From Acidobacteriota bacterium (GTDB taxonomy: Bacteria > Acidobacteriota > Thermoanaerobaculia > Multivoradales > UBA5704), in the NCBI GenBank assembly GCA_040005235.1, contig JBDTZG010000016.1, positions 36,066 to 100,065 on the forward strand: DNA of 64,000 nt, in the 5' to 3' direction. Positions 21,022 through 48,600 of the stretch are shown piece by piece. Position 1 is the stretch's first letter, and every line of letters begins with the position of its first letter. A model generated the notes under the pieces. It ran no database searches, was not told the origin of the DNA, and worked only from the letters and a program-made list of their open reading frames with translations. Made by a program: the position numbers and the translations under genes.

Positions 21022-21159
21022 GGCGGTGGACGCCCTCCTACCGCTCTAAAGACGCGAATCACCCCCTGACTCTTGATGGTTCGGCGTAATTCGTTCGAAT
21101 TCCTCGGCTAACCCGGCCCGGTGCTATCGTTTCGGGCCACGAACCGGAGGGAGCCTCAA

Positions 21160-22107
21160 ATGCTGCGCCCCCTGCTGTCGATCGGAGGGATTTTGTTCGC
21201 CACCGCTTGCGCCGCGACCGCACCGCCTGCTTCGAAACCTCTGTCGGAGGTGCCGAAACCGGCTCTCCCGGAAGTTTCTGCCGCGATCGGATCCGCATTG
21301 GCCGGTGCCAAGGGAACCACCGCGGTCTCGTTCTACGACCTCGCCACGGGGGAGACCGCCGGGCGCGAGGAACACCGGCGGTTCCACGCCGCGAGCACGA
21401 TGAAGGTTCCGGTGCTGGTCGAGCTGTTCCGGGCGATCGATCGGGGGGAAATGGCACTGGACCGTCCGGTCCCGGTGAAGAACGAGTTCAAGAGCCTGGT
21501 GGACGGCTCGCCGTTCAGCCTGAACCAAGAGGAGGACGGCGACCCGGATCTTTACGCGGCGGTGGGGGAGAGCCGGGCGCTGGGCGAGCTGGCGCGGCGG
21601 ATGATCCAGCGCAGCTCGAACCTTTCGACCAACCTGCTGATCGAGCTGCTGGGCGCGAAGCGCGTGACCGCCGCGATGCGAGAGCTGGGTGCCAGCGAGA
21701 TCGAAGTCCTACGCGGGGTGGAAGACCAGAAGGCGTTCGATGCCGGGTTGATCAACTCGACGACCGCCTATGATCTCCAAGTCATCCTGCGCGCGATTGC
21801 CGAGAAGAAGGCGGTCTCAGGGGCGGCGAGCGCGGCGATGATCGAGATCCTGGAGGGCCAAGAGTTCAAGGAGAAGATCCCGGCGGGCCTGCCTCCTGGA
21901 ACGCGGGTGGCTAACAAGACCGGCGACATCACGGGCATCCACCACGACGCGGCGATCATTTTTCCTCCGGGGCCGCCGGGCCGGGCGCCTTACGTGCTGG
22001 TGGTGCTCACGGAAGGGTACCCGAGCGAAGAAGAGGCAGATGCCTCGATCGGGGCGGTCTCGAAGGCGGTATGGCAGGCGGTACAGGCGGGCGCAAGCTC
22101 ACGATAG
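21160..22107 (+). CDS. Class A beta-lactamase-related serine hydrolase, lipoprotein
   Basis: Lipobox-like FATAC; AASTMK (SxxK), SSN, NKTG, HDAA. Confidence 0.88.
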
Positions 22108-22159: not shown

Positions 22160-23227
22160 ATGAGCTTGAAGCCGATCGACAGCATCGTGGGCCACCTGGG
22201 TGCCGACGCGGACGACCTCCTCTCTTTCACCTGCAAGGGCATCCCCAAAGAGATGCTGACCCTTCCGGGTCCCGATTACATCGACCGGGCGTTCGCGCTC
22301 TCGGACCGGAAGACCCAGGTGCTGGTGAACCTCGGACGGCTCTATGGCACCGGCCGGCTCGCGAACACGGGGTATCTGTCGATCCTGCCGGTCGATCAAG
22401 GCATCGAGCACTCGGCGGCGGCTTCGTTCGCGCCGAACCCGATCTATCTGGAGCCGGAAAACATCGTCAAGCTCGCGATCGAGGGGGGCTGCAACGCGGT
22501 CGCCTCGACGGTTGGCGTTCTCGGGGCGGTCGCCCGGAAGTACGCGCACAAAATCCCGTTCATCGCCAAGATCAACCACAACGAGCTGCTCACTTACCCG
22601 AACAAGGCGGAACAGATCCTGTTCGGCTCCGTCGAGCAGGCCTGGGAGATGGGCGCGGCGGCGGTCGGCGCCACGATCTACTTCGGTTCGGATGACGCCT
22701 CTCGCGAAATCGTCGAGATCGCCGAGGCGTTCCGGCATGCGCACGAGCTGGGGCTCGCGACCGTCCTCTGGTGCTACACCCGGAACAACGCTTTCAAGAA
22801 GGACGGCGTCGATTACCACACCGCCGCCGACCTCACCGGTCAGGCGAACCATCTCGGCGTGACGATCCAGGCCGACATCATCAAGCAGAAGCTCGCCACC
22901 TTGAACGGTGGCTACCCCGCGATCGGCTTCGGCAAGACCAGCCCGAAGATCTACGGCGAGCTGGTCACCGACCATCCGATCGACTGGAACCGCTGGCAGG
23001 TCGCCAACTGCTACCTCGGCCGGATAGGACTGATCAACTCCGGCGGAGAATCCCAAGGCGCCGCCGACCTCGCCCACGCAGTCCGCACCGCGGTGATCAA
23101 CAAGCGCGCCGCAGGCTGCGGCCTGATCTCCGGCCGGAAAGCCTTCCAGCGCCCGATGGCCGAAGGCGCCGCGCTGCTCATGGCGATTCAGGACGTGTAC
23201 CTGTGCGACGAGGTGACGGTGGCGTAA
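22160..23227 (+). CDS. fbaB: Class I fructose-bisphosphate aldolase (DhnA/FbaB type)
   Basis: [49 protein letters not shown]. Confidence 0.95.
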
Positions 23228-23251
23228 GGGGTGGGGCAGGGAGCTGGCCCG

Positions 23252-23385
23252 ATGCCCAGAGCTGACATCTACTGGATACCTGGCCCATGGCTGGGACGCT
23301 TGGCCATCGTGCCCCGTCCCCGGGGTAGTGACTGGCTCGGGGACGAGGCGCGGGCTTGGCGGGATGCCGGACTCTCGGTCATTTG
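23252..23385 (+). pseudogene. Truncated N-terminus of a small tyrosine/dual-specificity phosphatase
   Basis: MPRADIYWIPGPWLGRLAIVPRPRGSDWLGDEARAWRDAGLSV resembles this family's N-terminus; no HCxxGxxR catalytic loop follows. Confidence 0.6.
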
Positions 23386-23548
23386 GCGCCGGGGGTCGTT
23401 GGTGCGCTGGAGACGCCCCGACAGCCAGCACCCGGGTAGGTCTGTGGTCGCGTCCTGGGGCGTCTCTACCCCCTGCAGTGCCTCCGAGCAGGCGCGTAAA
23501 CCCTGATAGCCTTGGCGCCTTCCGGTCTTTCGGAGGAGGCGCGCCGCG

Positions 23549-26449
23549 ATGAATCTCCCCACCCTCGCTTCTCAGGTCGTCGAAGCCCTGGCTCCGGCGT
23601 TGCCGCTCCTGCTCGGCACGGCGGGAGCGATCGGTGGATCGGTGGCGAAGGAGATCGGAAAAGACGTCTGGGAGAAGGGGAAACAGATCTGGGGCCGCGT
23701 CGGCGGCACGATCGAAGCGAGCCCTGCGGCTAAGGAGATCGCACAGGAGCTGGCCGCTGATCCCGAGGACGCCGACCTCAAGAGGCAGCTGGCCGACCGG
23801 CTCGCGCGGCTGCTTGCAAAGGACGAGGCGCTCGCCACTACTCTCGCCGCTTGGGCCAGCGAGAGTGTCGTGGTGCAGAACCAGGGGTCCGGCCCTGCGG
23901 TAGCCGCCGCCACGAAGGGCATCGCGGCAGGTCATGACCTCGTCAATATTCAGACGGTCAACGTCTATCTAACCACCATCAACCGCGAGCTTGCCGCCGT
24001 CGCTCCGGCGGTCGATCTGGAGCAGGGGATGCGGCGTTATCAGGCGTATCTCCTGTCGCGGCACACCCACCTCGAATTTCGCGGCATGGGCGTCGACCGC
24101 CTGGTGCTCAAGCTGCCGCTCACGGAAGTCTACGTGCCGGGCCGCGCGCGGGTGCGGGCTCCCGAGGGGGACTCGTGGACGCGAATCGCGGCACGCCTCC
24201 GGGGTCGCGAGCCGGGCGCTGAGGACGTCGAATCGATGGGGGAGCGAGGTCGCCCGGCCGAGCTGCTCGATCTGTTGAAAGACAAGGCCGGGCTCGTACT
24301 GCTCGGCGATCCGGGGGCGGGCAAGTCGACGTTCTTGAAGTTCCTCGCGCTCAAGGCCGCGCGCGGTGAATCCGAAGAACTCGGTCTCGGCCTTCGGCTG
24401 CCGCTGCTCGCCCCGCTCGCGGCGTATGCCACGCGCCTTGGCGGGGAGCCGGGCTTGAATCTCCAGTCTTTCCTCGCCGAGCAGCTCGCCGAACAGGGGG
24501 TGCAGGTCAACGCCGCGCGCCTGCTCGCCGAGGGGCTCGGCAAGGGGCGAATGCTGATCCTGCTCGATGGCCTCGACGAGGTGGCGGACGAAAAGCTGCG
24601 CCACAAGGTAGCCGCGCGGGTGAAGGACTTCTTCTGCGCGGTCCAAGGGGACGGCAACAAACTGGTCGCGACCAGCCGGATCGTCGGCTATGCCGAGGCG
24701 CGGATCGAAGCGGAAGGCCTGGGCGAAGGCACGCTGGTCGATTTCGACGACGACGAGATCGAGGCGTTCGTGACCCGCTGGACCGCGGCGGTCGAACGCG
24801 CCGCGCGGGGCGAGGGCGATGCCGCGACCTTCGACGCCGAGCGCGAACGCACGGGACTGCTGGCGGCGATTCGTCGCGACTCCGGCGTCGGGCGCTTGGC
24901 CGCAAATCCGCTCCTCCTCACCATTCTCGCCCTGATGAAACGCCAGGGGGTGGAGCTGCCCGAGCGGCGGGCGGAGCTCTACTCAACCTACGTCCGCGTG
25001 CTGATCCACCAATGGAATCTCGCGCGTTCGCTCTCGGGCGAAGCGGTCGCCGGTCTCGACGTGGGCGAAACGCTTCGGGTTCTCGCCCCGCTCGCGCTCT
25101 GGATGCAGGAGACCTCCGGCGCGCGCGGCATGGTTACGGAAGAGGCGTTGCAAGGGGAGCTGCGCCGCCTCTTTGCCGATGAGCCCGATCCGGCGCAGGC
25201 GGCGGCGCGCTTTCTATTCGACGTGCGGAAGGACACCGCGCTCCTGATCGACCGCGGAGGCAAGACTTTCGGCTTCATCCACCTCACTTTCCAGGAGTAC
25301 CTGGCGGCGGTCGCGCTGGTCCAAACCGCGCAGATCGAGCTACCGCCGCTGGTCGAAGCGCTCGCGGCCCGAGTCGGCCAGCCGGAGTGGCTGGAAGTGA
25401 TTCGTTTGGCCATTGGCGATCTCGCGCGCGATCGTCCCGAAGCCGCGGGGCGGATGAGCGAACAGATCCTCGAAAGCCGACCCGGTCCGCCGGGCGAGGC
25501 CGAGATCTTTGCCGGCCTCGCGGCGCTCGACATCGGCCGCAAGGGTCTCCCCGCCGCCTCGCGCGAACGCGCGGTCGGCGCGCTGCTCTCGACCCTGCGC
25601 GACGACGAGCGAGTGCCGGCCGGCATCCGCGCCCAGGCGGGCGAAGTGCTGGCGGATCTGGGCGACCCGCGCCCGGAGGTGACGACGCTCGCCGGAATGC
25701 AGTTCTGCCGGGTGCCGGCGGGTCCATTTCGGATGGGGAGCGAAGAGCGCGACGAGGATTCTTACTTGGACGAGCGGCCGCAGCACGATCTCGACCTTCC
25801 CGAGCCGTACGAAATCGGGCGCTTCCCGGTCACGGTTGCGCAGTTCGCGGAATACGTCGTGCGAAGCGGCAACCCTCCCGGCGATCCGGACGCTTTGCGC
25901 GGCGGGGTGAACACTCCCGTCGTCTGGGTGAGTTGGCACGGGGCGACCTCCTTCTGTCGCTGGCTCACCGAAACATGGCGGGAGGAAGGGAAGTTGAAGG
26001 CGGACGGGCAGGTGCGCCTGCCGTCGGAAGCGGAGTGGGAAAAAGCTGCGCGGGGCGGCTTGGTCAACAATCCGGCGCCGACGAGAAATTACCCCTGGGA
26101 GGGGGCCTTCGATCCGAACCGGGCTAATTGCAACGCCACGGAGATCGGGAGACTGAGCGCGGTGGGCTGCTTCCCCGGTGGGGCGAGCCCGCACGGAGTG
26201 GAGGAGCTGGCGGGGAATGTGTGGGAGTGGACCCGGAGCGTTCGGGCCGAGAAGTTCAGCTACCCCTACGTGCCTGGCGACGGTCGGGAGGACCTCGAAT
26301 CTCCCCTTCAGGTGGTGTTGCGCGGTGGGGCGTTCCTCGATCGGCCGAGGGTCATCCGTTGTGCCGTTCGCGACTGGGGCGAACCTGACGGTCGCTACGA
26401 CGGTGTCGGGTTTCGTATCGTGGTGTCCCCGTTCCTCTCTGGCCTCTGA
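23549..26449 (+). CDS. STAND/NLR-like protein 1: Bell-like helical domain, amyloid-like motif, NACHT NTPase, FGE-sulfatase (C-type lectin fold) domain
   Basis: GGAGG RBS; LLGDPGAGKST, LILLDGLDEV, NPLLL, FIHLTFQEYLAA; GDPR; RLPSEAEWEKAARG, GNVWEW, VLRGGAF, GFR. Confidence 0.92.
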   Translation: MNLPTLASQVVEALAPALPLLLGTAGAIGGSVAKEIGKDVWEKGKQIWGRVGGTIEASPAAKEIAQELAADPEDADLKRQLADRLARLLAKDEALATTLAAWASESVVVQNQGSGPAVAAATKGIAAGHDLVNIQTVNVYLTTINRELAAVAPAVDLEQGMRRYQAYLLSRHTHLEFRGMGVDRLVLKLPLTEVYVPGRARVRAPEGDSWTRIAARLRGREPGAEDVESMGERGRPAELLDLLKDKAGLVLLGDPGAGKSTFLKFLALKAARGESEELGLGLRLPLLAPLAAYATRLGGEPGLNLQSFLAEQLAEQGVQVNAARLLAEGLGKGRMLILLDGLDEVADEKLRHKVAARVKDFFCAVQGDGNKLVATSRIVGYAEARIEAEGLGEGTLVDFDDDEIEAFVTRWTAAVERAARGEGDAATFDAERERTGLLAAIRRDSGVGRLAANPLLLTILALMKRQGVELPERRAELYSTYVRVLIHQWNLARSLSGEAVAGLDVGETLRVLAPLALWMQETSGARGMVTEEALQGELRRLFADEPDPAQAAARFLFDVRKDTALLIDRGGKTFGFIHLTFQEYLAAVALVQTAQIELPPLVEALAARVGQPEWLEVIRLAIGDLARDRPEAAGRMSEQILESRPGPPGEAEIFAGLAALDIGRKGLPAASRERAVGALLSTLRDDERVPAGIRAQAGEVLADLGDPRPEVTTLAGMQFCRVPAGPFRMGSEERDEDSYLDERPQHDLDLPEPYEIGRFPVTVAQFAEYVVRSGNPPGDPDALRGGVNTPVVWVSWHGATSFCRWLTETWREEGKLKADGQVRLPSEAEWEKAARGGLVNNPAPTRNYPWEGAFDPNRANCNATEIGRLSAVGCFPGGASPHGVEELAGNVWEWTRSVRAEKFSYPYVPGDGREDLESPLQVVLRGGAFLDRPRVIRCAVRDWGEPDGRYDGVGFRIVVSPFLSGL
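26315..26428 (+). repeat. Candidate DGR variable repeat VR1
   Basis: 114 bp colinear with 29189..29302; differences concentrated at codon positions 1-2; identical 3' block. Confidence 0.65.
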
Positions 26450-26507
26450 GCTCTGGGCCCTCTGTTCTCTGGCGGGCACTTGCGGAAACCCCACCCGCCC
26501 TTCGACC

Positions 26508-26518
26508 TTGCTAAACTG
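26508..26518 (+). promoter_or_regulatory. Extended -10-like element TTGCTAAACTG upstream of NLR 2
   Basis: TGn-TAAACT; the same 11-mer occurs at 29372..29382. Confidence 0.45.
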
Positions 26519-26551
26519 AGCGCTCATCCTTGTTCAGGGAGCGCGGAGGCC

Positions 26552-29338
26552 GTGACGAAAAGAGCAGAGCCCGACGGGACCGACCTCGTACGCTCGGCGC
26601 TCGCGGCGCAGGGGTACTCGGAAGAAAAGATCGCGGAGATTCTCGCGGGTCTGGGTGGCGCGCATGCGAAGGCGGAAAGCCAGAGCGCCGTGTCGCAAGG
26701 GGGTGGCGCCGCCGCGACCGATCACGGCATCGCGGTCGGGGGTGACGTTCATGGCGGCATGACCGTGGTGCAACCCGGAGTCTCCGGCGCGCCGACCGGT
26801 AAGACTCTGGACGAGGCGTACCTCCGCTATCTCTGCGCCGAAGTGAGCCGGGTCACCCTGTCGCAGATCGATTCTTCGGTCGAAGGCGCCGATCCGCTCG
26901 CGAAGTTTGAGCTTCACGCGGTCTATACCGCTTTGCTGACCACGACTCCTCGCGGCAAGCCGGGACGCGAGATGCCTGCCCCATCGATGTTGGATCGTGG
27001 AGTGCGCTCCCTGTCCGCGCTCGAACTGCTCGACCTGCACCCGCGGTTGGTTCTACTCGGCGATCCGGGTTCGGGCAAGAGCACGTTCGTCCACTTTGTG
27101 GCGCTCTGTCAGGCGGGGGAGCGAGTCGGCGCCCCCTGGCCGGATCTCGGCGTGCTCACCGCCCCCGTTCCCGGGGAAGAGAAGGTACAGCCCTGGCGGC
27201 ACGGCACGCTCGTGCCGGTGCGAGTGATCCTCCGTGACTTTGCGGTCGATGGCCTGCCGGCGCTCGGGGAGAAGGCAACGGCAGAGCACCTCTGGCAGTT
27301 CATCGCAGGCAGCCTCGCCGCGGTGGGGGTCGGCGACTACGCGCCCCGGCTGCGAGATCGACTCCTTTCCGAAGGCGGGCTCGTGCTGCTCGACGGTCTG
27401 GATGAAGTCCCGGACGCTGCGGGCCGGCGGTTGCAGATCCGCGAAGCGGTGGAGAGCTTCTCAGGGTTGTACACCAAGTGTCGGGTTCTGGTGACCAGCC
27501 GGATCTATTCGTACCGCAGCCAGGGTTGGCGCCTTACAGGCTTCGAGGAAGCGGAGCTGGCGCCCTTTTCCGACGCGCAGATCGAGCGCTTCGTGAAGGA
27601 TTGGTACGCCCACGCGGCGAGCCGCGGGCGCGGCAGCGCGGAGGATGCGGAGGGCCAGGCGCGCTTGTTGGTCCAAGAGATCGAAGGAAACCCCCGCCTG
27701 CGCGGTTTCGCGGAGCGACCACTATTGCTGACGTTGATGGCGAGCCTGGCGCGGGCGCGCGGCCGGGGCTTACCGGATCGGCGGGCGAAACTCTACGAGC
27801 AGGTGGTCGAGCTGCTACTGGACCTGTGGGAATGCGTTCGCTATCAGAAGGACAAGGAGGGAAAATACCGCCTCGTCCAGCCCAGCCTTTCCGATTGGTT
27901 GAAGACCGACCGTAGCGCCGTGCGGGAAGTGCTCGAAGATCTCGCCTTCGAGGCGCATTCCGCGCAAACCGCCGCCGAGGGTACGGCCGACATCGCGGAG
28001 AAAGACCTGGTGGCTCGGTTGGTGAAGCTCGCCGGGAGCGAAGAGGTCAGCCAGAAACAGCTGGTCAAGTTTCTGAGCGAGCGTTCGGGGCTCTTGATCG
28101 CACGCGGCGTCGAGGTTTTCACCCTGCCGCACCGAACGTTTCAAGAGTACCTAGCCGCCTGCCATCTGACTCGCGGCTCGTTTCCCGATGAGGTGGCGGA
28201 GCTCGGCCGGCAGGACCCCGACCGCTGGCGGGAGGTCGTACTCCTTGCCGCCGCAAAAGCCGAAGAGGGAACGGTCGCCAACGTCTGGACGCTCGCCCGG
28301 AGCCTTTGTTCGGTCGATCCGGAGTCCGCGGAGTCGGAGCTGCCAGACGCCTTGGGCGCATTCTTGGGAGGTCTCGCCTTGGTCGAGTCTCCCCGGGCGC
28401 TGGGCCAGGTAGGGCGACAGAATCGCGATCAGCTCGAACGGCTGCGCCGCTGGCACATCCATTTGCTCGGAGACGAGCGCTTTCCGGCCGTGGAGCGCAC
28501 GGCGGCGGGGACGACGCTTTGGGCGCTGGGCGATCCGCGTTTCAATGAGGAGACGTGGTTTCTGCCGAAGGATCCGCTGTTGGGATTCGTGGAGATCCAG
28601 GAGGGCAATTTCCGCATGGGGGAGGACGCCGGGCTGCACGAGGTCTTTCTCCCGACCTTCTACATGGCGCGTTGGCCGGTGACGGTGGCGCAGTTCCGGG
28701 CGTTCGCGGTGGCGGCACAATACGAAGGGGTGCCGAAGGAGTTCTTGGACCGTCCGGGAAGCGATCCTGTCGTGTCGGTAAACTGGCACGACGCCTTGGC
28801 GTATTCGCGTTGGCTGGGGGGGCGTTTGCTGGCCGAGGCGGAGAAGAAAAAAGCGTCTGGGTGTGGAGACGAGGAGCGCGAGCGGGCATTCTGGCAAGGT
28901 CTGGCATCGGGCGACCTGTCGGTGAGGCTGCCGTCAGAAACGGAGTGGGAGAAGTCGGCGCGGGGCGTCGCCGGTCTGACCTACCCATGGGGCGAGAGGC
29001 ATGCGCGGAATCGGTCGAACGATTACGATTCAGGGGTAGGGAAGGTGAGTGCGGTCGGCTGCTTTCCGCGTGGTGCGAGCCCGTACGGGGTGGAGGATCT
29101 GGCGGGGAACGTGTGGGAGTGGACCCGGAGTGTTTGGGGCGAGAAGTTCAACTACCCCCCCGTGAAAGGTGACGGAAGGGAGGACCGAGTATTGCGCGGC
29201 GGGGCGTTCAACGATCTCCCCTGGTTCGCCCGGTGTGCCGTTCGCCACAGGTACGCTCCCGCCGACCGCAACGGCAGTGTCGGGTTTCGTATCGTGGTGT
29301 CCCGTTCCGATCTGGCCTCTGAGTTCTCTGGATTCTGA
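26552..29338 (+). CDS. STAND/NLR-like protein 2: N-terminal amyloid-like motif, NACHT NTPase, FGE-sulfatase (C-type lectin fold) domain
   Basis: GGAGG then GTG 26552; LLGDPGSGKST, LVLLDGLDEV, RPLLL, LPHRTFQEYLAA; GDPR; RLPSETEWEKSARG, GNVWEW, VLRGGAF, GFR. Confidence 0.92.
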   Translation: MTKRAEPDGTDLVRSALAAQGYSEEKIAEILAGLGGAHAKAESQSAVSQGGGAAATDHGIAVGGDVHGGMTVVQPGVSGAPTGKTLDEAYLRYLCAEVSRVTLSQIDSSVEGADPLAKFELHAVYTALLTTTPRGKPGREMPAPSMLDRGVRSLSALELLDLHPRLVLLGDPGSGKSTFVHFVALCQAGERVGAPWPDLGVLTAPVPGEEKVQPWRHGTLVPVRVILRDFAVDGLPALGEKATAEHLWQFIAGSLAAVGVGDYAPRLRDRLLSEGGLVLLDGLDEVPDAAGRRLQIREAVESFSGLYTKCRVLVTSRIYSYRSQGWRLTGFEEAELAPFSDAQIERFVKDWYAHAASRGRGSAEDAEGQARLLVQEIEGNPRLRGFAERPLLLTLMASLARARGRGLPDRRAKLYEQVVELLLDLWECVRYQKDKEGKYRLVQPSLSDWLKTDRSAVREVLEDLAFEAHSAQTAAEGTADIAEKDLVARLVKLAGSEEVSQKQLVKFLSERSGLLIARGVEVFTLPHRTFQEYLAACHLTRGSFPDEVAELGRQDPDRWREVVLLAAAKAEEGTVANVWTLARSLCSVDPESAESELPDALGAFLGGLALVESPRALGQVGRQNRDQLERLRRWHIHLLGDERFPAVERTAAGTTLWALGDPRFNEETWFLPKDPLLGFVEIQEGNFRMGEDAGLHEVFLPTFYMARWPVTVAQFRAFAVAAQYEGVPKEFLDRPGSDPVVSVNWHDALAYSRWLGGRLLAEAEKKKASGCGDEERERAFWQGLASGDLSVRLPSETEWEKSARGVAGLTYPWGERHARNRSNDYDSGVGKVSAVGCFPRGASPYGVEDLAGNVWEWTRSVWGEKFNYPPVKGDGREDRVLRGGAFNDLPWFARCAVRHRYAPADRNGSVGFRIVVSRSDLASEFSGF
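29189..29302 (+). repeat. Candidate DGR variable repeat VR2
   Basis: Ungapped alignment with 26315..26428; retains AAC and AGG codons where VR1 has CTC, TAC and TGG. Confidence 0.65.
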
Positions 29339-29371
29339 ACTCTTGCCCTCTGTACTCTGGCGAGTGGCACT

Positions 29372-29382
29372 TTGCTAAACTG
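29372..29382 (+). promoter_or_regulatory. Extended -10-like element TTGCTAAACTG upstream of the Bell-like gene
   Basis: Identical to 26508..26518; 36 nt before ATG 29419. Confidence 0.45.
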
Positions 29383-29418
29383 TTGGTATCCACTTTCACA
29401 CGGTGCGGGAGATGCGTA

Positions 29419-29907
29419 ATGGAAGGCATGGATCTCAGTTTGATCGCCCAAGCAACGATCGCGGTTCTCGGCCCCCTCGTCGGCCAGCTGTTTTCGGTCG
29501 GTGGCGAGAAGGCGGTCGAGGCTGCGGCGGGGAAGTTCGGCGAGGGCATGTTCGAACGGGCGAAGGCGGCGTTGGGCAAGCTCGGCAAGAAGGCCGAGGC
29601 CAAGCCGGGCGCTCCAGAGGCCGCGCGGGCGGTGGCCGAGACACCGGACGACACTTACGCGCAGGCGGAGCTGGTGCTTCACCTGAAGAAGATCCTTGCC
29701 GCCGATCCGGATCTGGCGGCGGAGCTGGAGCAGATCGTCCGGAAGAGCCCGGCGGGGAATGTGATGATCGCGACCGCCACCGATCGCTCCGCCATCGGAC
29801 AGGGGGGCGGTGCGGCGGCGGCGGGCGGCGGTATCGCGATCGGTGGCAACGTCTACGGCGGCGCGCGGTTCGATCGCGACGAAGAAGGCGGCGGCGGCAA
29901 GCGGTAG
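29419..29907 (+). CDS. Small Bell-like helical effector with C-terminal amyloid-signalling-like motif
   Basis: Helical domain aligns by eye with the NLR 1 N-terminus (PDDTYAQAELVLHLKKILAADPDLAAEL vs PEDADLKRQLADRLARLLAKDEALATTL); C-terminal SAIGQGGGAAAAGGGIAIGGNVYGG. Confidence 0.85.
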   Translation: MEGMDLSLIAQATIAVLGPLVGQLFSVGGEKAVEAAAGKFGEGMFERAKAALGKLGKKAEAKPGAPEAARAVAETPDDTYAQAELVLHLKKILAADPDLAAELEQIVRKSPAGNVMIATATDRSAIGQGGGAAAAGGGIAIGGNVYGGARFDRDEEGGGGKR

Positions 29908-29924
29908 CAGGCGAGCTGATTTCA

Positions 29925-30344
29925 GCGCTTGCCCCGCACAATTCGGCCGATGACTTGTGCGATTCCGCGATTGACGTGTGCGAAAACGCCGTCACAGCGC
30001 ACGATTCCGGCGCTGATTTTTACAGGACGGCCGTCGGCGAGGGGTCGCGAGGCGTCGAAAATTGGATTCCTGCCGTCCACAAGGGGTTCTCAGCCGTCGA
30101 CGCGTGCAGGCCGGCCGTTCCTTTGTGCGAGTTTCCCGTTCGCAAGGCCTCGCGAGCCGCGAAAAATAGGTCGGCAGCCATCGATTCGCACATGTTTCTC
30201 GCTGCCTTGTGCGAAATTTTGGTTCACCGATCGTTGTGGGCGGCAGAAATCCCATTGGCAGCGGCGTACGAGGGACCGGCGACGGACGACGCTCGTGTGG
30301 CGGCGGTTGAAATCCTGTCGGGGGCGACCGAGACGGGATCGTGA
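29925..30344 (+). repeat. Degenerate tandem array, 21-bp period, about 20 units
   Basis: Units in phase start with GCCGTC/GGCGTC/GCCGTT/GCCATC-like anchors; recurring in-phase sub-words TGTGCGA, TCGCGA, AGGGGT. Confidence 0.8.
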
Positions 30345-30472
30345 GCGGTCGGCGATCTACCGAATACCGGGGACGGTTTTATCGTGGGGCATGATCCTCT
30401 TCGCGCCCGGACGGCGCCTACTCTAACGAGAAGGCGAAATCCTTCGTCCTTCTGAAGAACAGGGGACCGTCC

Positions 30473-30661
30473 ATGAAATCGAAGCGCGACAAGAAGCTGG
30501 CCTTGAGTGCAGAGACCGTACGCCGCCTGAACAACTTCGAAATGGCCGAGGTGGCGGGCGGAATCACCTCGATCTGCACCGCCAACCCCAACGCCGGCTG
30601 TACGACGTCGGACCACTGTACCGAATCCTGCGGCCCGATCTCCGTCTGCATCTGCCGTTGA
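30473..30661 (+). CDS. RiPP precursor, lanthipeptide-like (double-glycine leader)
   Basis: Leader MKSKRDKKLALSAETVRRLNNFEMAEVAGG; 32-aa core with 6 Cys, 5 Thr, 4 Ser; AGGGGA RBS. Confidence 0.8.
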   Translation: MKSKRDKKLALSAETVRRLNNFEMAEVAGGITSICTANPNAGCTTSDHCTESCGPISVCICR

Positions 30662-30770: not shown

Positions 30771-31637
30771 GTGACGCGTCTTGGAGACCTCGAGCTGGCC
30801 CTGGTCGGCGATGGAGAGTTTCGCCTCGACGGCGGAGCCATGTTCGGGGTCGTGCCGAAAGCGCTCTGGGCGTCGATGAAGGTGCCGGACGCCGACAACC
30901 GCATCCGCATGGCGACGAACTGTGTGCTGGTCCGGCGGGGGAGCGACCTCCTCCTGATCGACACCGGGATCGGCGACAAGCACAACGCCAAATTCGGCGA
31001 GATCTACGACCTAGACCCCCACGCCGTCCGCCTGCCAGAGGCGATCCGAGGGGCCGGTTTCGAGCTTTCAGACGTCACCCACGTCCTGCTGTCGCACCTC
31101 CATTTCGACCACTGCGGCTGGAACACCCGCCGCAACCCGGAGGGCCGGGTCGTTCCGACCTTTCCGAACGCCCGCTATTGGCTGAACCGGGGGGAGGTCG
31201 AGCACGCCAGGAACCCCAGCGAGCGCGACCGGGCGAGCTACTTTCCCGACAACTGGGAGCCGCTGTTCGAGGCGGGCCAGGTCGAGCTGTTCGACGACGA
31301 GGCCGAGCCGATGCTGGGGGTCCGCGCCGTGCGCGCCCCGGGGCATAACGCGGACATGTGCATCGTTCTACTAGATGGCGGAGTCCCCGACGGGGTCCCG
31401 CAACGTGCCGTGTTCTGGGCCGATCTGGTGCCGACCGTCGCCCACGTGCCGCTCCCCTGGATCATGGCTTACGACCTCTATCCGCTGACGACGCTGGAAA
31501 ACAAGAAGAAGTGGCTGCCGCGCGCCTCGGAGGAGAATTGGCTCTGCATCTTCGAGCACGATGCCGAAACTCCCCTCGCCCGCCTGGCCTCGGACCGGCC
31601 GGGGCGTTTCCGCGTCGTACCTGTCGCGGCTCCTTGA
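30771..31637 (+). CDS. Metallo-beta-lactamase-fold hydrolase (YtnP-like)
   Basis: FRLDGGAMFGVVPK, LIDTG, SHLHFDHCG, PGH, WIMAYDLYP, FEHD. Confidence 0.92.
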   Translation: MTRLGDLELALVGDGEFRLDGGAMFGVVPKALWASMKVPDADNRIRMATNCVLVRRGSDLLLIDTGIGDKHNAKFGEIYDLDPHAVRLPEAIRGAGFELSDVTHVLLSHLHFDHCGWNTRRNPEGRVVPTFPNARYWLNRGEVEHARNPSERDRASYFPDNWEPLFEAGQVELFDDEAEPMLGVRAVRAPGHNADMCIVLLDGGVPDGVPQRAVFWADLVPTVAHVPLPWIMAYDLYPLTTLENKKKWLPRASEENWLCIFEHDAETPLARLASDRPGRFRVVPVAAP

Positions 31638-42671: not shown

Positions 42672-45600
42672 CTATTCGATCTCGAAACCCATCAATGAAA
42701 CCGGGGTGGTCGTGACGGCGTTGGTGTTGTTGGCCATGTTCGGGTCGAATTCATTGGCGGTGACCATCGCCGTGTTCGCCACCGATCCGCCGACCGTCTT
42801 GGTCACCGTCAGGTCGACCGTGATGCTGCTTCCTCCCTCAATGCTCCCGAAGGAGCAGGTGACGGTCGTCGTTCCCGAGCAGATCCCCGGCGAGCTCGGC
42901 ACGGCGGAGACCAAGGTGACTCCGGCGGGTAGGGTGTCGGTAATGATGACGCCGTTGGCGCTGTTGATGACGCTGGCGGGGCTCAAGTTCGTGGCGACGA
43001 TGACGTAGTGGAAGTTCAAACCGACGGCCACCGGTTCCTGGGTGGTGATCTTGGTCAGGGCCATGTCGGCAAAAGCCGCCGACGGATTGAGGACCACACT
43101 CGCCGCGTCGTTGCCGGTGACTAGATCTTGTTCGGTCGCCGCGGTCTTGGTGAACGTCTGGATCACCGTCGCCGCCACCGTGTTCGTCATGGTGAGCGAG
43201 AGCGTCGCCGATGCGCCCGCGGCGAGCGTTCCGATGCTCCAGGTTCCGGTACCCGGGGTGTAGGTCCCCTGGGACGGGCCGGAAGAGACGAAGCTGAGCC
43301 CCGCGGGCAGATTGCTGTTGAGGCTCACCCCGGTAGCGGTCGAAGGTCCGGCGTTCCTCGCCGTCACCGTGAAGACGACGTTCTGGCTGACAGCCGGCGT
43401 GCTGTTGTCGACCGTCTCCGAAACCTGAATGTCGATCAGCGGCATTCCGTTCAAATTCACCGCGGCCGTGTTGTTGCTGCCCTTGGTGTCGCCCCCGCTC
43501 TGGCCGGTCGAGGTGGCCTGGTTCACCTGCGACTGCACACGGTTGACCGTCGCGGTCAAGGTGAGGGTTGCCGTCGCGCCGTTGGCGAGCGAGCCGATAG
43601 TCCAGATCCCCGTGCCGCTGACGTAGCTTCCGGTGGACGGGGTCGCCGAGACGAAGGCCAGGCCGACCGGTAGCAGGTCGTTCACTTGGACGCTGGTCGC
43701 ATCCGACGGGCCGTTGTTGGCCGCGGTGATCGTGAAGATGATGTTCGTCGCAAGCGGCGGTGCGGCGTTGTCGACGCCCTTGCTGATCGCGATGTCGTTA
43801 CGGACCACCAGCGTGTCGGTATCGGTCGAGGTGTTGTTGCCCGGGGTCGGGTCGGAGTTGGGACCGGTAACCGTCGCCGTGTTCGAGAGCGAGCCGGTCG
43901 CCGAGGAGGTGATCGAGCAAACGGCGGTGTAAGTGACCGAAGCGCCGGTCGGCAAGGTCGCCGCGTCGCTGATGTTGCCGGAGCCTACCGAGGTGCAGAC
44001 GCCGCCGCCCGCGCCGACGCAGGTCCAGTTGCAGGTGAGCGAGGCATCGAAGGTATCGGCCACCGTCGCGGTGGAGCTCGACGGCCCCGCGTTGCTCGCC
44101 AGGATCGTGTAGGTGGTGGTGCCGCCGGGGGTGGCGGTGAGCGTACCGTCGCTCTTGCCGATCGAGAGGTCGGACGAAGCCGCCAGGGTGTCGGTGTCGG
44201 TCGCACTGTTGTTGTCCGGCGTCGGATCAGTGGACACGCCGGTGACGGTCGCCGTGTTGATGAGAGAACCGGTCGCCGAGGGCGAGATCGAGCAGGAAGC
44301 CGTGTAAGTGACGGAACCGCCCGCGGGCAGGGTCACCGACTGGTTGATGTTGCCGGAGCCGGAGGCGGTGCAGGTGCCGCCGCCCGCGCCGACGCAGGTC
44401 CAGGTGCAGGTGAGCGAGGCATCGAAGGTATCGGCCACCGTCGCCGAGGTATTCGACGGCCCGGCATTGCTCGCCGTGATCGTGTACGTGGTGCTGCCGC
44501 CCGGGGTATAGGTCGCAACACCGTCGGTCTTGGTGATCGAGGCATCTGCCGAAGCCGTCAACGTGTCGACGTCCGTGGCGCTGTTGTTGCCCGGGGTCGG
44601 GTCGGTTGCGGCGCCACCCACCGTCGCCGTGTTGGAGAGCGAACCGGTGGCCGCGGCCGAGATCGAGCAGGAGGCAGTGTAAACGACCGAGCCGCTGCTC
44701 GGCAGAGTGACCGAATCATTGATGTTGCCGGAGCCCGAAGCGGTGCAGGTACCGCCGCCCGCGCCGACACAGGTCCAGGTGCAGGTGAGGGTGGCGGGGA
44801 AGGTGTCGGCCACAGTGCCGGTGGTGTTCGACGGCCCGGCGTTGCTGGCCGTTATCGTGTAGGTCGTGCTGCCGCCGGGAGTTGCCGTCGCCACGCCGTC
44901 GGTCTTGGCGATCGCGAGGTCGGCCAAAGGCGTCAGGGTGTCGGTGTCGGTCGCACTGTTGTTGCCCGGCGTCGGATCAGTGGCCACGCCGGTGACGGTC
45001 GCCGTGTTGATGAGGGAACCGGTCGCCGAGGGGGAGATCGAGCAGGAAGCCGTGTAAGTAACGGAACCGCCCGAAAGCAGGGTCACCGACTGGTTGATGT
45101 TGCCGGAGCCGGAGGCGGTGCAGGTGCCGCCGCCCGCGCCGACGCAGGTCCAGGTGCAGGTGAGCGAGGCATCGAAGGTATCGGCCACCGTCGCCGAGGT
45201 ATTCGACGGCCCGGCATTGCTCGCCGTGATCGTGTACGTGGTGCTGCCGCCCGGGGTATAGGTCGCAACACCGTCGGTCTTGGTGATCGAGGCATCTGCC
45301 GAAGCCGTCAACGTGTCGACGTCCGTGGCGCTGTTGTTGCCCGGGGTCGGGTCGGTTGCGGCGCCACCCACCGTCGCCGTGTTGGAGAGCGAACCGGTGG
45401 CCGCGGCCGAGATCGAGCAGGAGGCCGTGTAAACGACCGAGCCACCGGCCGCCAAAGTTGCCGCGTCGTTGATATTGCCGGAGCCCGAGGCGGTGCAGGC
45501 GCCGCCGCCCGCGCCGACGCAGGTCCAGGTGCAGGTGAGCGAGGCGGGGAAGGTGTCGGCCACCGTGGCGGTGGTGTTCGACGGCCCGGCGTTGCTGGCC

Positions 45601-48600
45601 GTCATCGTGTAGGTCGTGCTGCCGCCGGGGGTCGCGTTGGCCACACCGTCGGTCTTGGTGACGCTCAAGTCGGCCGAAGGCGTCAGGGTGTCGATATCCG
45701 TCGCACTGTTGTTGCCCGGGGTCGGGTCGGAGGCGGCGCCCGTGACCGTCGCCGTGTTGGAGAGCGAACCGGTGGCCGCGGCCGAAATCGAGCACGAGGC
45801 CGTGTAAACGACCGAGCCGCCGGCCGGCAATGTTGCCGCGTCGTTGATGTTGCCTGAGCCCGCGGCGGTGCAGGCGCCGCCGCCCGCGCCGACGCAAGTC
45901 CAGGTGCAGGTGAGGGTGGCCGGGAAGGTATCGGCGACCGTACCGGAGGTGTTCGACGGCCCGGCGTTGTCGGCCGTAATCGTGTAGGTTGTGCCGCCGC
46001 CAGGGGTCACCGCGGTGATGCCGTCGGTCTTCGTGATCCCGAGATTCGCCGAGGCTGCAAGGGTGTCGGTATCCGTCGCGCTGTTGTTGCCCGGGGTCGG
46101 ATCGGTGGCAGCTCCGGTCACCGTCGCCGTATTGGAGAGCGAACCGGTGGCGCCCGCCGAAATGTTGCACGAGGTGGTGTAGGTGACCGACCCGCCAACC
46201 GGCAAGGTCACCGAGTCGCTGATGTTGCCGGCGCCCGCCGCCGTGCAGGTGCCGCCGCCCGCGCCGACGCAGGTCCAGATGCCGGTGAGGGTGGCCGGGA
46301 AGGTGTCGGCCACCGTGGCGGTGGTATTCGACGGCCCGGCGTTGCTCGCCGTGATCGTATAGGTCGTGCTGCCGCCGGGGGTCGCGGTCGTCACTCCGTC
46401 GGTCTTGCTGATCACTAGATCGGCCATGGCGGTCAGGGTGTCAGTATCCGTCGCGCTGTTGTTGGCGGGGGTAGGATCGCCTGCGACACCGTTCACCGTT
46501 GCCGTATTGGAGAGCGTACCGGTTGCCAAGACCGAGATCGCGCACGAGGCCGTATACGTGACCGATCCGCCGGCAGGCAGGGTCACCGCATCGCTGATGT
46601 TTCCGGAGCCCGCAGCGGTGCAGGTGCCGCCGCCCGCGCCAACGCAGGTCCAGGTGCAGGTGAGGATGGCGGGGAAGGTGTCTGCCACCGTCCCGGTCGT
46701 GCCTCCCGGTCCTGCATTCGAGGCCGTGATCGTGTAGGTCGTGCTGCCGCCGGGGGTGGCAGTCGTCACTCCGTCGGTCTTGGTGACGCTTAAGTCGGCG
46801 ACCACCTCATCCGCGCCGATGGACGGCGCCGTCAGCGAACGGGTGTCGTTGTCGATGTCGACGGTCACACCGGCGATCGGAACGCCCGCCGAGGCCAGCG
46901 TGCTGGTCGGCTGCAGGTGAAGGTCGTTGTTGGTGAGGTAGGGCACTGCGGCCGTAGAGGCCTGCGACGCGTTGTCGTTCGTCCCGGCCGGCGACAGCGT
47001 GCTCGAATAGGCCGCGAGAGCCGCGAGAGTGGTGAAGAAGTTGGTCCCCGCCGTGGTTCCGGCCTGGCCTACGCCTTGCCGTGCGGCGTCGGTGCCGAAG
47101 AAGTAGGCGTTGTTGTTCCAGGTGAGGTTCATCGCCGACGTGCCGCCGGACGGCAGGAACGCGGAGACGTGGGCAATCGAGGTCGTGCCGCCGGTGATGT
47201 TGTTGGCGAAGATGTTGTCGCGCACATCGCAGCCGGTGGAGGTCGTGGCGACCAGACCGAACGCCGCCGTCAACAAGCTGGTGGCCGCCGTGCCGGGCAG
47301 CGCGCCGTAGAGGTTCACGGAGTTGAAATAGATTTTGTGGCCGGTGCCCGCTCCGACGCGAATGCCGAACACGCCGAAGGTGGTCGAAAAGGCGCCGCCG
47401 CCCGTCATGTTGAAGCTGACGTTGCTGACGAAGTTGTTCTTGACGGTGATGTTGTTGCCGCCGCTGAGGTCGATCCCGTAGGCACCGAAGGTTCCGGTGC
47501 TGGTGTTGATGATGCCCTGGACGTTGTTCTTTTCGATCGTCAGATCGGACGTCGCGCCGGACACCGCGATGCCGCGCACCGCCGACGTCGTCGGCGTTCC
47601 GTTGCTCGAGATGTCGCTCACGTTGTTGCCGGTGATGACGTTGTTCGTCGACGCGACGCTACTCGTCACGTTGATGCCGATCGGCGTGAACGTGCTCGTG
47701 CCGGTGTAACCGATCCCCGAAACCGTATTGCCGGAGACGGTCGCGTTGATCGTGCCGGTCGCGAGCCAGATGCCGACGTCGCTCTCGTCATTGGCCTTGT
47801 CGATGTTGCCGACGGTATTGTTGGAGACCGTCGCGCCATTTACGCCCTGCATGTAGAGGGCCACATCGCGGATGGCGTTGGCGCCGCTCGTGTTGACCTT
47901 GTTCTGGGTGTAGACGAGGTTCGAGCCGCCTTGCGGCGTCGTGCCACCGGTCGCGAACACGCCGACGAAGGCTTTCTGCACGTCGTTGTTCTGGATCGTG
48001 ATGTTGGAGAACAGGCCCGCGTTGCCCGCGACCGTCGCATCCGAGATGACGACCGCGGAGCTAGTGTTGGCCCCGTTGATCACCACGCAGTTCTTCAAGG
48101 TGTCGTTGGTGATTGGCGTGGCACCGACCGAGCCGAAGAGCACGACGCTCGGGGACGTGACGCTGGTGTTGGTGATCGTCAGGCTGCGATCCGTGCCAGT
48201 GCCGCCGATCGAGCCGTCGATCGTGACTCGGCTCGAGCCGTTCATGCGAATCAGTGCGCCGGCAAAGGCGCCTGTGATCGCCCGGGCGACGCCGGTCGGA
48301 TAGATCTTGACCGTGAAGTTGCTGCCCGCCGGCTGCTCGGAGAGCGCGTTCAGGCCGTTCGTACCGTCTTCGCCCACGACCAAGTCGCCGGCGATCTGGA
48401 TCTCGACGTTGCCGGTGGCGACGCCGATGTTGATGGCACCGAAGATGCCGGTGGCGCCGGTCAATGTCGGGAAATCGCAACCCGAAGCGCAAACCGTCTT
48501 GATCCCGCTGATGGGCGCTGAGATGAGATAACTGTTCGGCGTAGTGGGGGGTGTCGCCGCCGCCGGCGGGTTGGCCGTGAAGCCGCCAGCGCCCGCGACC

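Follow-up and report, generated by a model that had tools for sequence, protein, structure and literature searches.

Introduction

Amyloid templating, by which a receptor passes its signal to a killer protein, is known from fungi, from some Actinobacteria and Cyanobacteria, and from one Escherichia coli antiphage system; here, as throughout, what we say of published systems refers to the parts of the papers that were consulted. In this work we analysed a stretch of 64,000 nucleotides from the 6.2-Mb genome of an Acidobacteriota bacterium of the Thermoanaerobaculia (GenBank assembly GCA_040005235.1, contig JBDTZG010000016.1, positions 36,066 to 100,065; hereafter the window), in which three co-directional genes lie head to tail. 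Two of them encode NOD-like receptors (NLRs; NOD, nucleotide-binding oligomerisation domain), here called NLR1 and NLR2, and the third encodes a small protein, here called the effector. NLR2 carries near its N-terminus a glycine- and alanine-rich motif that recurs at the C-terminus of the effector. We consider it probable, at about 0.72, that NLR2 and the effector form a two-component, receptor-to-effector module of the kind that signals through bacterial amyloid signalling sequences (BASS), and that this module stands beside an all-in-one paralogue, NLR1. All three genes are numbered on the forward strand of the window, on which they are encoded.

The closest described systems are pairs of Bell proteins and NLRs that share a BASS motif. 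Bell is a helical domain of about 100 amino acids, found in proteins of 120-140 amino acids and rarely at the N-terminus of NLRs; like HeLo, MLKL and RPW8 it has a hydrophobic first helix and an acidic residue at position 2 or 3, and Bell proteins carry ten or more families of C-terminal motif (10.1101/2020.01.06.895854). The published BASS motifs are about 20-40 amino acids long, rich in G/Q/N/V/I and poor in K/P/L, and have beta propensity; a central G-hydrophobic-Q-hydrophobic-G core marks the RHIM, PP and BASS3 motifs. The motifs of Bell protein and NLR are encoded within 5 kb of each other, usually collinearly, and the pairs shown to cross-seed are 43-56% identical (10.1101/2020.01.06.895854). 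All-in-one forms have also been published, in which the effector domain is joined straight to the NOD; the same study removed proteins of more than 200 amino acids to filter such forms out. For the acidobacterium Granulicella, only a free Bell protein is shown there (10.1101/2020.01.06.895854).

Results

The shared motif of NLR2 and the effector

The receptor-side motif is encoded at 26678..26758, within NLR2 (26546..29338), and begins about 45 residues past the probable start codon; it is followed by a NACHT domain (Pfam, E 1.2e-7) and an FGE-sulfatase domain (PF03781; residues 703-939, E 4.2e-43). Downstream, the effector open reading frame (ORF; 29383..29907) gives a protein of 159 amino acids from ATG 29428 or of 162 amino acids from ATG 29419, the latter being the length of its database copy. 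The predicted helical, Bell-like domain of this protein (29428..29781, residues 1-118, delimited by an AlphaFold2 model) leads directly into the effector-side motif at 29782..29862. Between the NLR2 stop at 29338 and either effector start lies a gap of 80-89 nt.

A sequence-only reading of the window had drawn attention to peptides at 26684-26758, 29788-29862 and 23876-23944, and translation reproduces all three exactly. Its count of 17 identical residues in 25 between the NLR2 and effector peptides is repeated by our own count by eye. It had also called the two proteins otherwise unrelated and the motifs well placed, and both statements hold: outside the motif NLR2 and the effector share nothing by BLASTP, and the motif stands at the C-terminus of one and near the N-terminus of the other, in adjacent collinear genes. 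The proposed length of 25 amino acids describes the core of the match but not its extent, the conserved motif being longer, at about 28-32 amino acids.

The match is real and beyond chance. When the effector 25-mer was scanned without gaps against the six-frame ORFs of at least 50 amino acids in the same genome (10,020,574 residues), NLR2 gave 17 identities, the next-best segment (a single one) gave 13 and seven further segments gave 12; in the reciprocal scan with the NLR2 25-mer, the best value was again 17 and the next 11. A whole-genome six-frame HMMER search with the effector returned three matches, namely the effector itself, the NLR1 N-terminus (E 5.4e-6) and the NLR2 motif (E 0.0012), the last with 56% identity over query residues 114-147. 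We also built a hidden Markov model (HMM) of the motif from 31 instances, chosen by eye in other genomes and excluding all window sequences. Among 66,250 frames of this genome the model ranked the effector first (28.0 bits, E 4.8e-6), NLR2 second (22.1 bits, E 3.3e-4) and NLR1 third; the next real frame scored 13.0 bits and the best reversed-sequence decoy 11.4 bits.

Recurrence and covariation in relatives

The arrangement recurs in related bacteria. Scanned with a pattern, species-representative genomes yielded four related loci, each of them in a metagenome-assembled genome (MAG) of Thermoanaerobaculia or Holophagales, within the Acidobacteriota. Among 61 genomes (that of the window and 60 relatives), 21 gave a match at E<=0.001, including 18 of the 36 of its own family. 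Of 300 other genomes sampled evenly from the phylum, only three had the N-terminal domain at E<=1e-5, and in these three it was accompanied not by the Gly/Ala motif but by tails of other types. All 20 database representatives that we looked up are metagenomic, and the organism names among word-indexed protein matches are those of Thermoanaerobaculia MAGs only.

We read 20 larger stretches of the relatives' DNA in all frames. In these fetched loci (designated by L numbers), window included, 16 effector-type ORFs end in the motif, and half of them (8/16, again with the window) have an adjacent collinear NACHT gene that carries the motif at its N-terminus, after a short helix. The effector gene precedes the NLR gene in five of these pairs (L037, L038, L042, L047 and L050) and follows it in three (the window, L041 and L043). 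The other motif-bearing effectors are either placed at the end of a contig or without a neighbour that has the motif in the stretch examined.

The sequence-only reading had proposed covariation of the motif pairs across genomes as a check, with its absence as the refuting outcome; covariation is present. On a MAFFT alignment of 34 motif instances, the mean identity of cognate effector and NLR motifs at the eight loci is 0.553, against 0.460 for non-cognate combinations, and 50 of all 40,320 permutations reach the observed cognate mean. Without L041 and L042, which are close relatives of L038, 3 of 720 permutations reach the observed value for the six remaining pairs. In addition, both partners at L050 carry a three-residue insertion that neither partner has in the other seven pairs. 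The covariation of cognate partners is thus real yet modest. The NACHT proteins that carry the motif fall into two distant clades, and one NB-ARC-like protein has it too.

Some loci depart from the usual arrangement. The NB-ARC-like protein (P-loop recognised by eye) begins with the Gly/Ala motif at 9158-9385 of L055 (G004:C30); no effector gene occurs in this 19-kb stretch, and seven effector-type matches lie elsewhere in the same genome. On the minus strand of L048 (G002:C91), a NACHT frame of 1241 amino acids lies directly upstream of a motif-bearing effector gene; its N-terminal ~300 residues look by eye like a ParA/MinD-type P-loop domain, and only a remnant of the motif precedes the NACHT domain. 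An Asn/Gln-rich tail follows the same helical domain in two other genomes of the family (L053 3880-4272, L053 ~980-1355 and L054 9022-9414, two of these copies in one contig), illustrating tail swapping in the lineage.

Character of the motif

The motif has a consensus of roughly G[SD]GAIAQGxGAVAAGxGGIA[IV]GG[DNS]VxG, and the effector copy consists of 39% glycine and 21% alanine. Autocorrelation over 34 instances was most strongly positive at lag 7 for glycine, bulky hydrophobic residues and alanine alike, with z values of 6.4, 5.7 and 5.4, respectively, against 500 shuffles; relatedness among the sequences inflates all three values. The motif can accordingly be divided into three to four heptad-like units (GAIAQGx, GAVAAGx, GGIAIGG and DVxGG). 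The beta-roll repeat YadA_head (PF05658) gave sub-threshold matches in 18 of 128 members of the effector family at E<=0.1, the best being P0091 (19.3 bits, E 0.0015, under the Pfam gathering cut-off of 25); the window effector had no YadA_head match at E<=0.1. The periodicity and these matches fit what may be a stacked-beta element. Short strands parted by glycines are used by beta-arch and beta-solenoid amyloids such as HET-s, and beta-sheet fibrils form readily from Gly/Ala-rich sequences such as those of silk crystallites and poly-GA.

Over 22 columns, the latter half of the motif aligns to tails of the ASGERSVAIGGNVSGSTIVTGD-type ('GERSVAIGG...TGD') with an hhalign probability of 92% (E 6.6e-7); thus, the Gly/Ala motif looks like an N-terminally extended relative of this widespread tail. 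In length and in its G/Q/N/V/I-rich composition it resembles the published BASS motifs, except that alanine is abundant also. The suggestion of a BASS/RHIM-like motif is supported as to BASS by the gene-pair context and unsupported as to RHIM: the hydrophobic-Q-hydrophobic-G tetrad at the core of RHIM, PP and BASS3 is absent from the three window motifs and from the family consensus, and Pfam reported no RHIM match in the window proteins at E<=0.01.

The effector domain and its family

An AlphaFold2 model of the effector from 128 sequences has a mean predicted local distance difference test score (pLDDT) of 76.4, an earlier one from 18 sequences having been poor (59.7). In the later model residues 1-118 are all-helical, mostly in blocks of pLDDT 77-96, with helices at residues 3-22, 30-33, 39-58, 62-71, 76-92, 94-106 and 108-118. 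All, or nearly all, sequences of the family alignment have an Asp at position 2 and a hydrophobic helix after it. Judged by the features described for Bell, the domain is likely a Bell domain.

The family is large. Among 1.84 billion representative proteins, a 15-sequence profile of the N-terminal domain found 3,458 at E<=0.001, of which 1,428 lie at E<=1e-10. Most of the best 149 representatives, the window protein excluded, are short (120 of up to 200 amino acids, against 22 of 201-450 and 7 of more than 450). Six of the seven long ones were scanned with Pfam: two have NACHT and FGE-sulfatase, two NB-ARC and TPR, one NACHT, and one an AAA_16/NACHT-like NTPase. The tails of the short members are modular, comprising the Gly/Ala motif, the very common ASGERSVAIGGNVSGSTIVTGD type, tails with an IQVG/IQIG core and several others. 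Of the 149, 16 reach 25 bits or more for the Gly/Ala motif and 32 reach 15 bits or more, the lower band including ASGERSVAIGGNVSGSTIVTGD-type tails. The IQVG/IQIG core was confirmed as part of a tail in five of seven proteins picked by regular expression; in the other two (P0080, VQVG, and P0031, IQIG) it lies outside a clear motif.

None of the 128 family members shares a Pfam helical-domain family, and the effector has no match in Pfam, PADLOC or NCBIfam. With neither model did Foldseek return a PDB match at E<=0.001 (best E 0.43 and 1.4), and the best VIA-align match among 48,161 chains was to ribosomal proteins (Z 5.8 over 60 residues), no more than the noise expected of helical models. 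As these fold searches returned only noise, they allow no statement on fold relatives. HetE-N (PF20701), suggested by 5 of 30 Atlas neighbours, was considered and rejected: it matched nothing in the genome at E<=10 and none of the 128 family members. In a sequence search of the PDB, positions 34-110 of the effector profile weakly matched (E 5.7e-4) the helical C-terminal part of entries 7xql, 7kj6 and 7ew8, all named ankyrin repeat-containing protein; the match may be noise of helical composition.

NLR1 and other fused forms

NLR1 (23549..26449; ORF of 966 amino acids) comprises, in order, a helical, Bell-like domain, a degenerate copy of the motif, a NACHT domain (residues 250-413, Pfam E 5.2e-10) and an FGE-sulfatase domain (residues 720-958, Pfam E 2.5e-45). 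Its helical effector-type domain (23549..23869) matches profile A2 at E 4.1e-36, a profile of 15 rows that itself includes NLR1 23549-23869; independent support comes from BLASTP against effector residues 1-122, by which the first ~120 residues of NLR1 are homologous to the effector N-terminal domain (E 2e-10).

The looser version of the motif that the sequence-only reading had placed between the helical domain and NACHT does lie there, at 23864..23947, and it is weak (14.9 bits, E 0.059 with the motif HMM). It has 10 of 32 residues (31%) identical to the effector motif. A clearer motif stands at the orthologous position in L004, with 18 of 33 residues identical to the NLR1 copy. Taken alone, the NLR1 copy appears real but marginal. 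The suggested cross-seeding of the effector by NLR1 finds weak support, as 31% identity compares with 43-56% in pairs shown to cross-seed, and action through its own fused domain is likelier for NLR1 than seeding of the free effector. At L004 (7619-8552) the NLR1 orthologue starts midway through the helical domain and has a frame that breaks after the P-loop region; at L051 (G026:C4) there are four or more NLR-type frames and an effector split across two frames. These broken frames may be decaying copies or assembly errors.

Eight fusions of the helical domain to NACHT were noted in the fetched loci, and each has the motif between the two domains. These motif-keeping forms are the window NLR1, those at L003, L046, L049, L051, L037 and L052, and the truncated NLR1 orthologue at L004. 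Likewise, six of the seven long database representatives have by eye a Gly-rich tail motif at the junction, four of the Gly/Ala type and two of the form 'GxxS[VA]A.GG'; P0097 has none.

The genes and their surroundings

The ORF of NLR2 is open from TTG 26480, and GTG 26546 is its probable start, because a GGAG lies just upstream and because the L037 homologue starts at the equivalent position. A database copy of NLR2 (99% identity) has 928 amino acids and so differs from both the 952 that follow from TTG 26480 and the 930 from GTG 26546; as it fits neither candidate, the start is uncertain by a few codons. Both NLRs end in FGE-sulfatase (PF03781, Pfam) and are 34% identical over NACHT and FGE-sulfatase. 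NCBIfam EruA gave a match confined to the surroundings of the P-loop, scoring 38 bits where the cut-off is 1000.

Searched genome-wide, the 3' 500 nt of NLR1 find a match in NLR2 alone, and those of NLR2 in NLR1 alone, at 77%. Diversification of the FGE-sulfatase domains by a retroelement was considered and rejected, there being no template repeat in the 6.2-Mb genome. A scan for promoters and terminators over 23000-30600 gave nothing exceeding shuffles. The flanking genes are metabolic and encode an amine oxidase, a class-A beta-lactamase-like protein, a DeoC aldolase, a metallo-beta-lactamase-fold protein, a dihydrolipoyl-dehydrogenase-like protein and E1 dehydrogenase components. The two beta-lactamase-type ORFs stand on either side of the three-gene cluster, at 21121-22107 (class-A family PF13354, E 5.3e-48) and at 30771-31637 (metallo-beta-lactamase fold PF00753, E 1.2e-13), both calls being family assignments only.

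Further away, the window holds tandem arrays of 375-nt repeats at 43771-46885 and 52721-54338 (8 + 4 copies, 60-95% mutual identity), which would encode repeated domains of about 125 amino acids in two large genes. Other long repeats pair 42977-43276 with 51927-52226, and 50341-50640 with 57773-58072.

Discussion

A model for the module

By analogy with the published systems, we propose a model in which NLR2 would be the receptor, with its FGE-sulfatase domain (of C-type-lectin fold) as sensor, NACHT as oligomerisation switch and the Gly/Ala motif at the N-terminus, and in which the small downstream protein would be the executioner, with a helical domain of about 118 residues, a hydrophobic first helix that begins Met-Asp, and the motif at its C-terminus. 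First, a ligand would be sensed by the FGE-sulfatase domain, upon which NACHT would oligomerise. The clustered NLR2 motifs could then form a stacked-beta nucleus, whether cross-beta or beta-solenoid, and this nucleus would template the same fold in the effector tail. Finally, clustering or refolding of the effector would free its N-terminal helix for membrane attack, leading to regulated cell death or abortive infection; amyloid formation and a role in defence are part of the same analogy. NLR1 would be a fused version of the same logic, with helical domain, degenerate motif, NACHT and FGE-sulfatase in one chain. The NLR2 and effector motifs are 61% identical, which is above the 43-56% of the pairs found to cross-seed in experiments.

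Several points weigh against this model. In the AlphaFold2 monomer the motif is disordered (pLDDT <50 at residues 121-147). The motif is of low complexity, with 11 Gly and 6 Ala in 28 residues, and for this reason composition-adjusted BLASTP of NLR2 against the effector does not report it. Since its instances were picked by eye, the HMM scores for the source loci are circular, and only those for the window are independent. The loci of the covariation test are related to one another, and the cognate NLR is the best match of its effector in five of the eight. The Bell assignment is made from features alone, and no likeness to HeLo, MLKL, Rx-CC or Bab rose above noise in the fold searches. The sensor is an FGE-sulfatase domain, whereas the published NLRs have TPR or WD repeats, and Pfam reported no superstructure-forming repeat family of that kind (TPR, WD) in either NLR. 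PADLOC 2.0, which includes bacterial NACHT models, matched no family to NLR1, NLR2 or the effector at E<=0.001, and the neighbourhood has neither an evident defence island nor a prophage context.

Alternative explanations

The alternative that survives best is that the motif is a homotypic adaptor without amyloid character, that is, a soluble beta-roll or beta-solenoid like the YadA head that makes a stoichiometric contact between receptor and effector, in the manner of the Death-like or EAD adaptors of other STAND systems, and has no self-propagating fold. Recruitment of effectors by adaptor domains is the model proposed for systems that combine a STAND NTPase with an FGE-sulfatase-type domain (PMC10907252), and the retention of the motif in cis in fused proteins, where templating in trans is not needed, would suit such an adaptor well. 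So would the 7-residue periodicity and the YadA_head matches (18/128, best E 0.0015), yet all of these score below the cut-off (19.3 vs 25 bits), the window effector has none at E<=0.1, and in the monomer model the motif is left without a fold. Moreover, the layout, the motif length and the motif position are those of motifs that formed prions and fibrils when tested. We regard a soluble adaptor as unlikely.

Alternatively, the motif may be a historical linker: the gene pair would have arisen by fission of a fused gene, or in reverse the fused genes by fusion, and a Gly/Ala linker copied in the process would have stayed similar because the event is recent or through gene conversion. Many fused forms do have the motif at their junction (NLR1, L003, L046, L049, L051, L037 and L052), the fused NLR at L037 is the closest relative of the core of window NLR2 (E 3e-249), and the motif is of low complexity. 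However, a position-specific pattern is kept in the motif while the effector N-terminal domains of relatives have diverged to 32-46% identity and the flanks on the NLR side cannot be aligned. The spread of the motif over two distant NACHT clades and an NB-ARC-like protein also speaks against such an origin, and neither cognate-specific covariation nor a shared indel is expected of a passive linker. We hold this explanation to be very improbable.

Chance likeness of two Gly/Ala-rich stretches in a high-G+C genome, to which composition bias and the composition-adjusted BLASTP result might point, is refuted for NLR2 and the effector by 17 identities against 13 for the next segment genome-wide, by an independent profile that ranks the three neighbours 1-3 with decoys at no more than 11.4 bits, and by the recurrence of the motif in gene pairs elsewhere, although for the NLR1 copy alone (E 0.059) it is countered less firmly, by the motif kept at the orthologous position in L004.

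The motif in fused receptors

Returning to the amyloid signalling module, we put forward a tentative extension, which we think possible but doubtful: beyond being an adaptor in trans, the motif could be a built-in switch of the whole NLR clade. On oligomerisation the NOD would nucleate a stacked-beta element that activates the attached helical domain in cis and can recruit free motif-bearing effectors as well, with the clusters acting as receptor networks. If so, fused NLR1, split NLR2 and one free effector, and likewise the sets at L037 and L049, would share and amplify a single executioner, and such networks would sit in Thermoanaerobaculia-like Acidobacteriota, outside the groups known for this signalling. 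Retention of the motif in fused receptors bears on whether a cross-beta element is a mere connector or the activating switch itself; in the parts of the literature consulted we found no statement on it. The window also offers a compact test set, with one effector, a well-matched receptor motif (61%) and a poorly matched one (31%). Matched and mismatched motifs stand at one locus, and the identity needed for cross-seeding therefore becomes measurable.

Comparison with known systems

In full-text literature searches, no paper among the matches listed joined an amyloid signalling motif or the Bell domain with Acidobacteriota or Thermoanaerobaculia, and where amyloid signalling, NACHT, formylglycine and Acidobacteria were searched together, the accessible text of the papers had the amyloid term at most in reference lists.

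The Bell/BASS/NLR pairs are the nearest relatives in design. In both, the motif of about 25 amino acids at the effector C-terminus stands again at the N-terminus of the NACHT or NB-ARC protein encoded next to it in the same direction; the effector domain also occurs fused to NLRs, and the tails are modular, as with Bell and BASS1-10 (10.1101/2020.01.06.895854). In contrast, the motif described here is Gly/Ala-rich and built of three to four heptad-like sub-repeats; it may belong to one of the named families BASS1-11 or, as the sequence-only reading had suggested, to a new one. The host is an acidobacterium, whereas the published hosts are Actinobacteria, Cyanobacteria, Archaea, Bacteroidetes and Chloroflexi. 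The NLR gene comes first in three of the eight pairs, window included, and the fused paralogues keep the motif.

The Bab/Agp system (BASS11), which mediates antiphage abortive infection in E. coli, likewise consists of adjacent genes for a small helical killer with a C-terminal amyloid motif and a large sensor that bears this motif N-terminally, and the glycines there are proposed to break strands (10.1101/2024.11.07.622273). Bab has 109 amino acids, and the window, unlike that system, lacks a prophage or defence-island context.

In fungal HET-S/NWD2 and related HeLo/amyloid-motif/NLR systems, an N-terminal motif of the receptor templates the C-terminal motif of the effector and the N-terminal helix of the pore-forming domain is expelled, and split and all-in-one architectures coexist, as they do here. 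There is no sequence relation between the two, and the published all-in-one forms join effector to NOD, whereas here the motif lies between them.

Finally, STAND NTPases with FGE/FGS domains (STAND, signal transduction ATPases with numerous domains) combine NACHT or nSTAND with a C-terminal FGE-sulfatase-type domain that is proposed to sense invaders, have duplicated targets side by side, and use N-terminal adaptors to recruit a separate effector (PMC8195603, PMC10907252). Their adaptors are EAD or Death-like domains, and they are often diversified by retroelements; the locus in the window instead has a short Gly/Ala motif and no template repeat (PMC8195603, PMC10907252 for the former). Set beside these systems, the module that we propose would extend the receptor-to-killer scheme to an acidobacterial lineage, to NACHT receptors with FGE-sulfatase sensors, to a Gly/Ala motif of heptad periodicity and to fused receptors that keep the motif.

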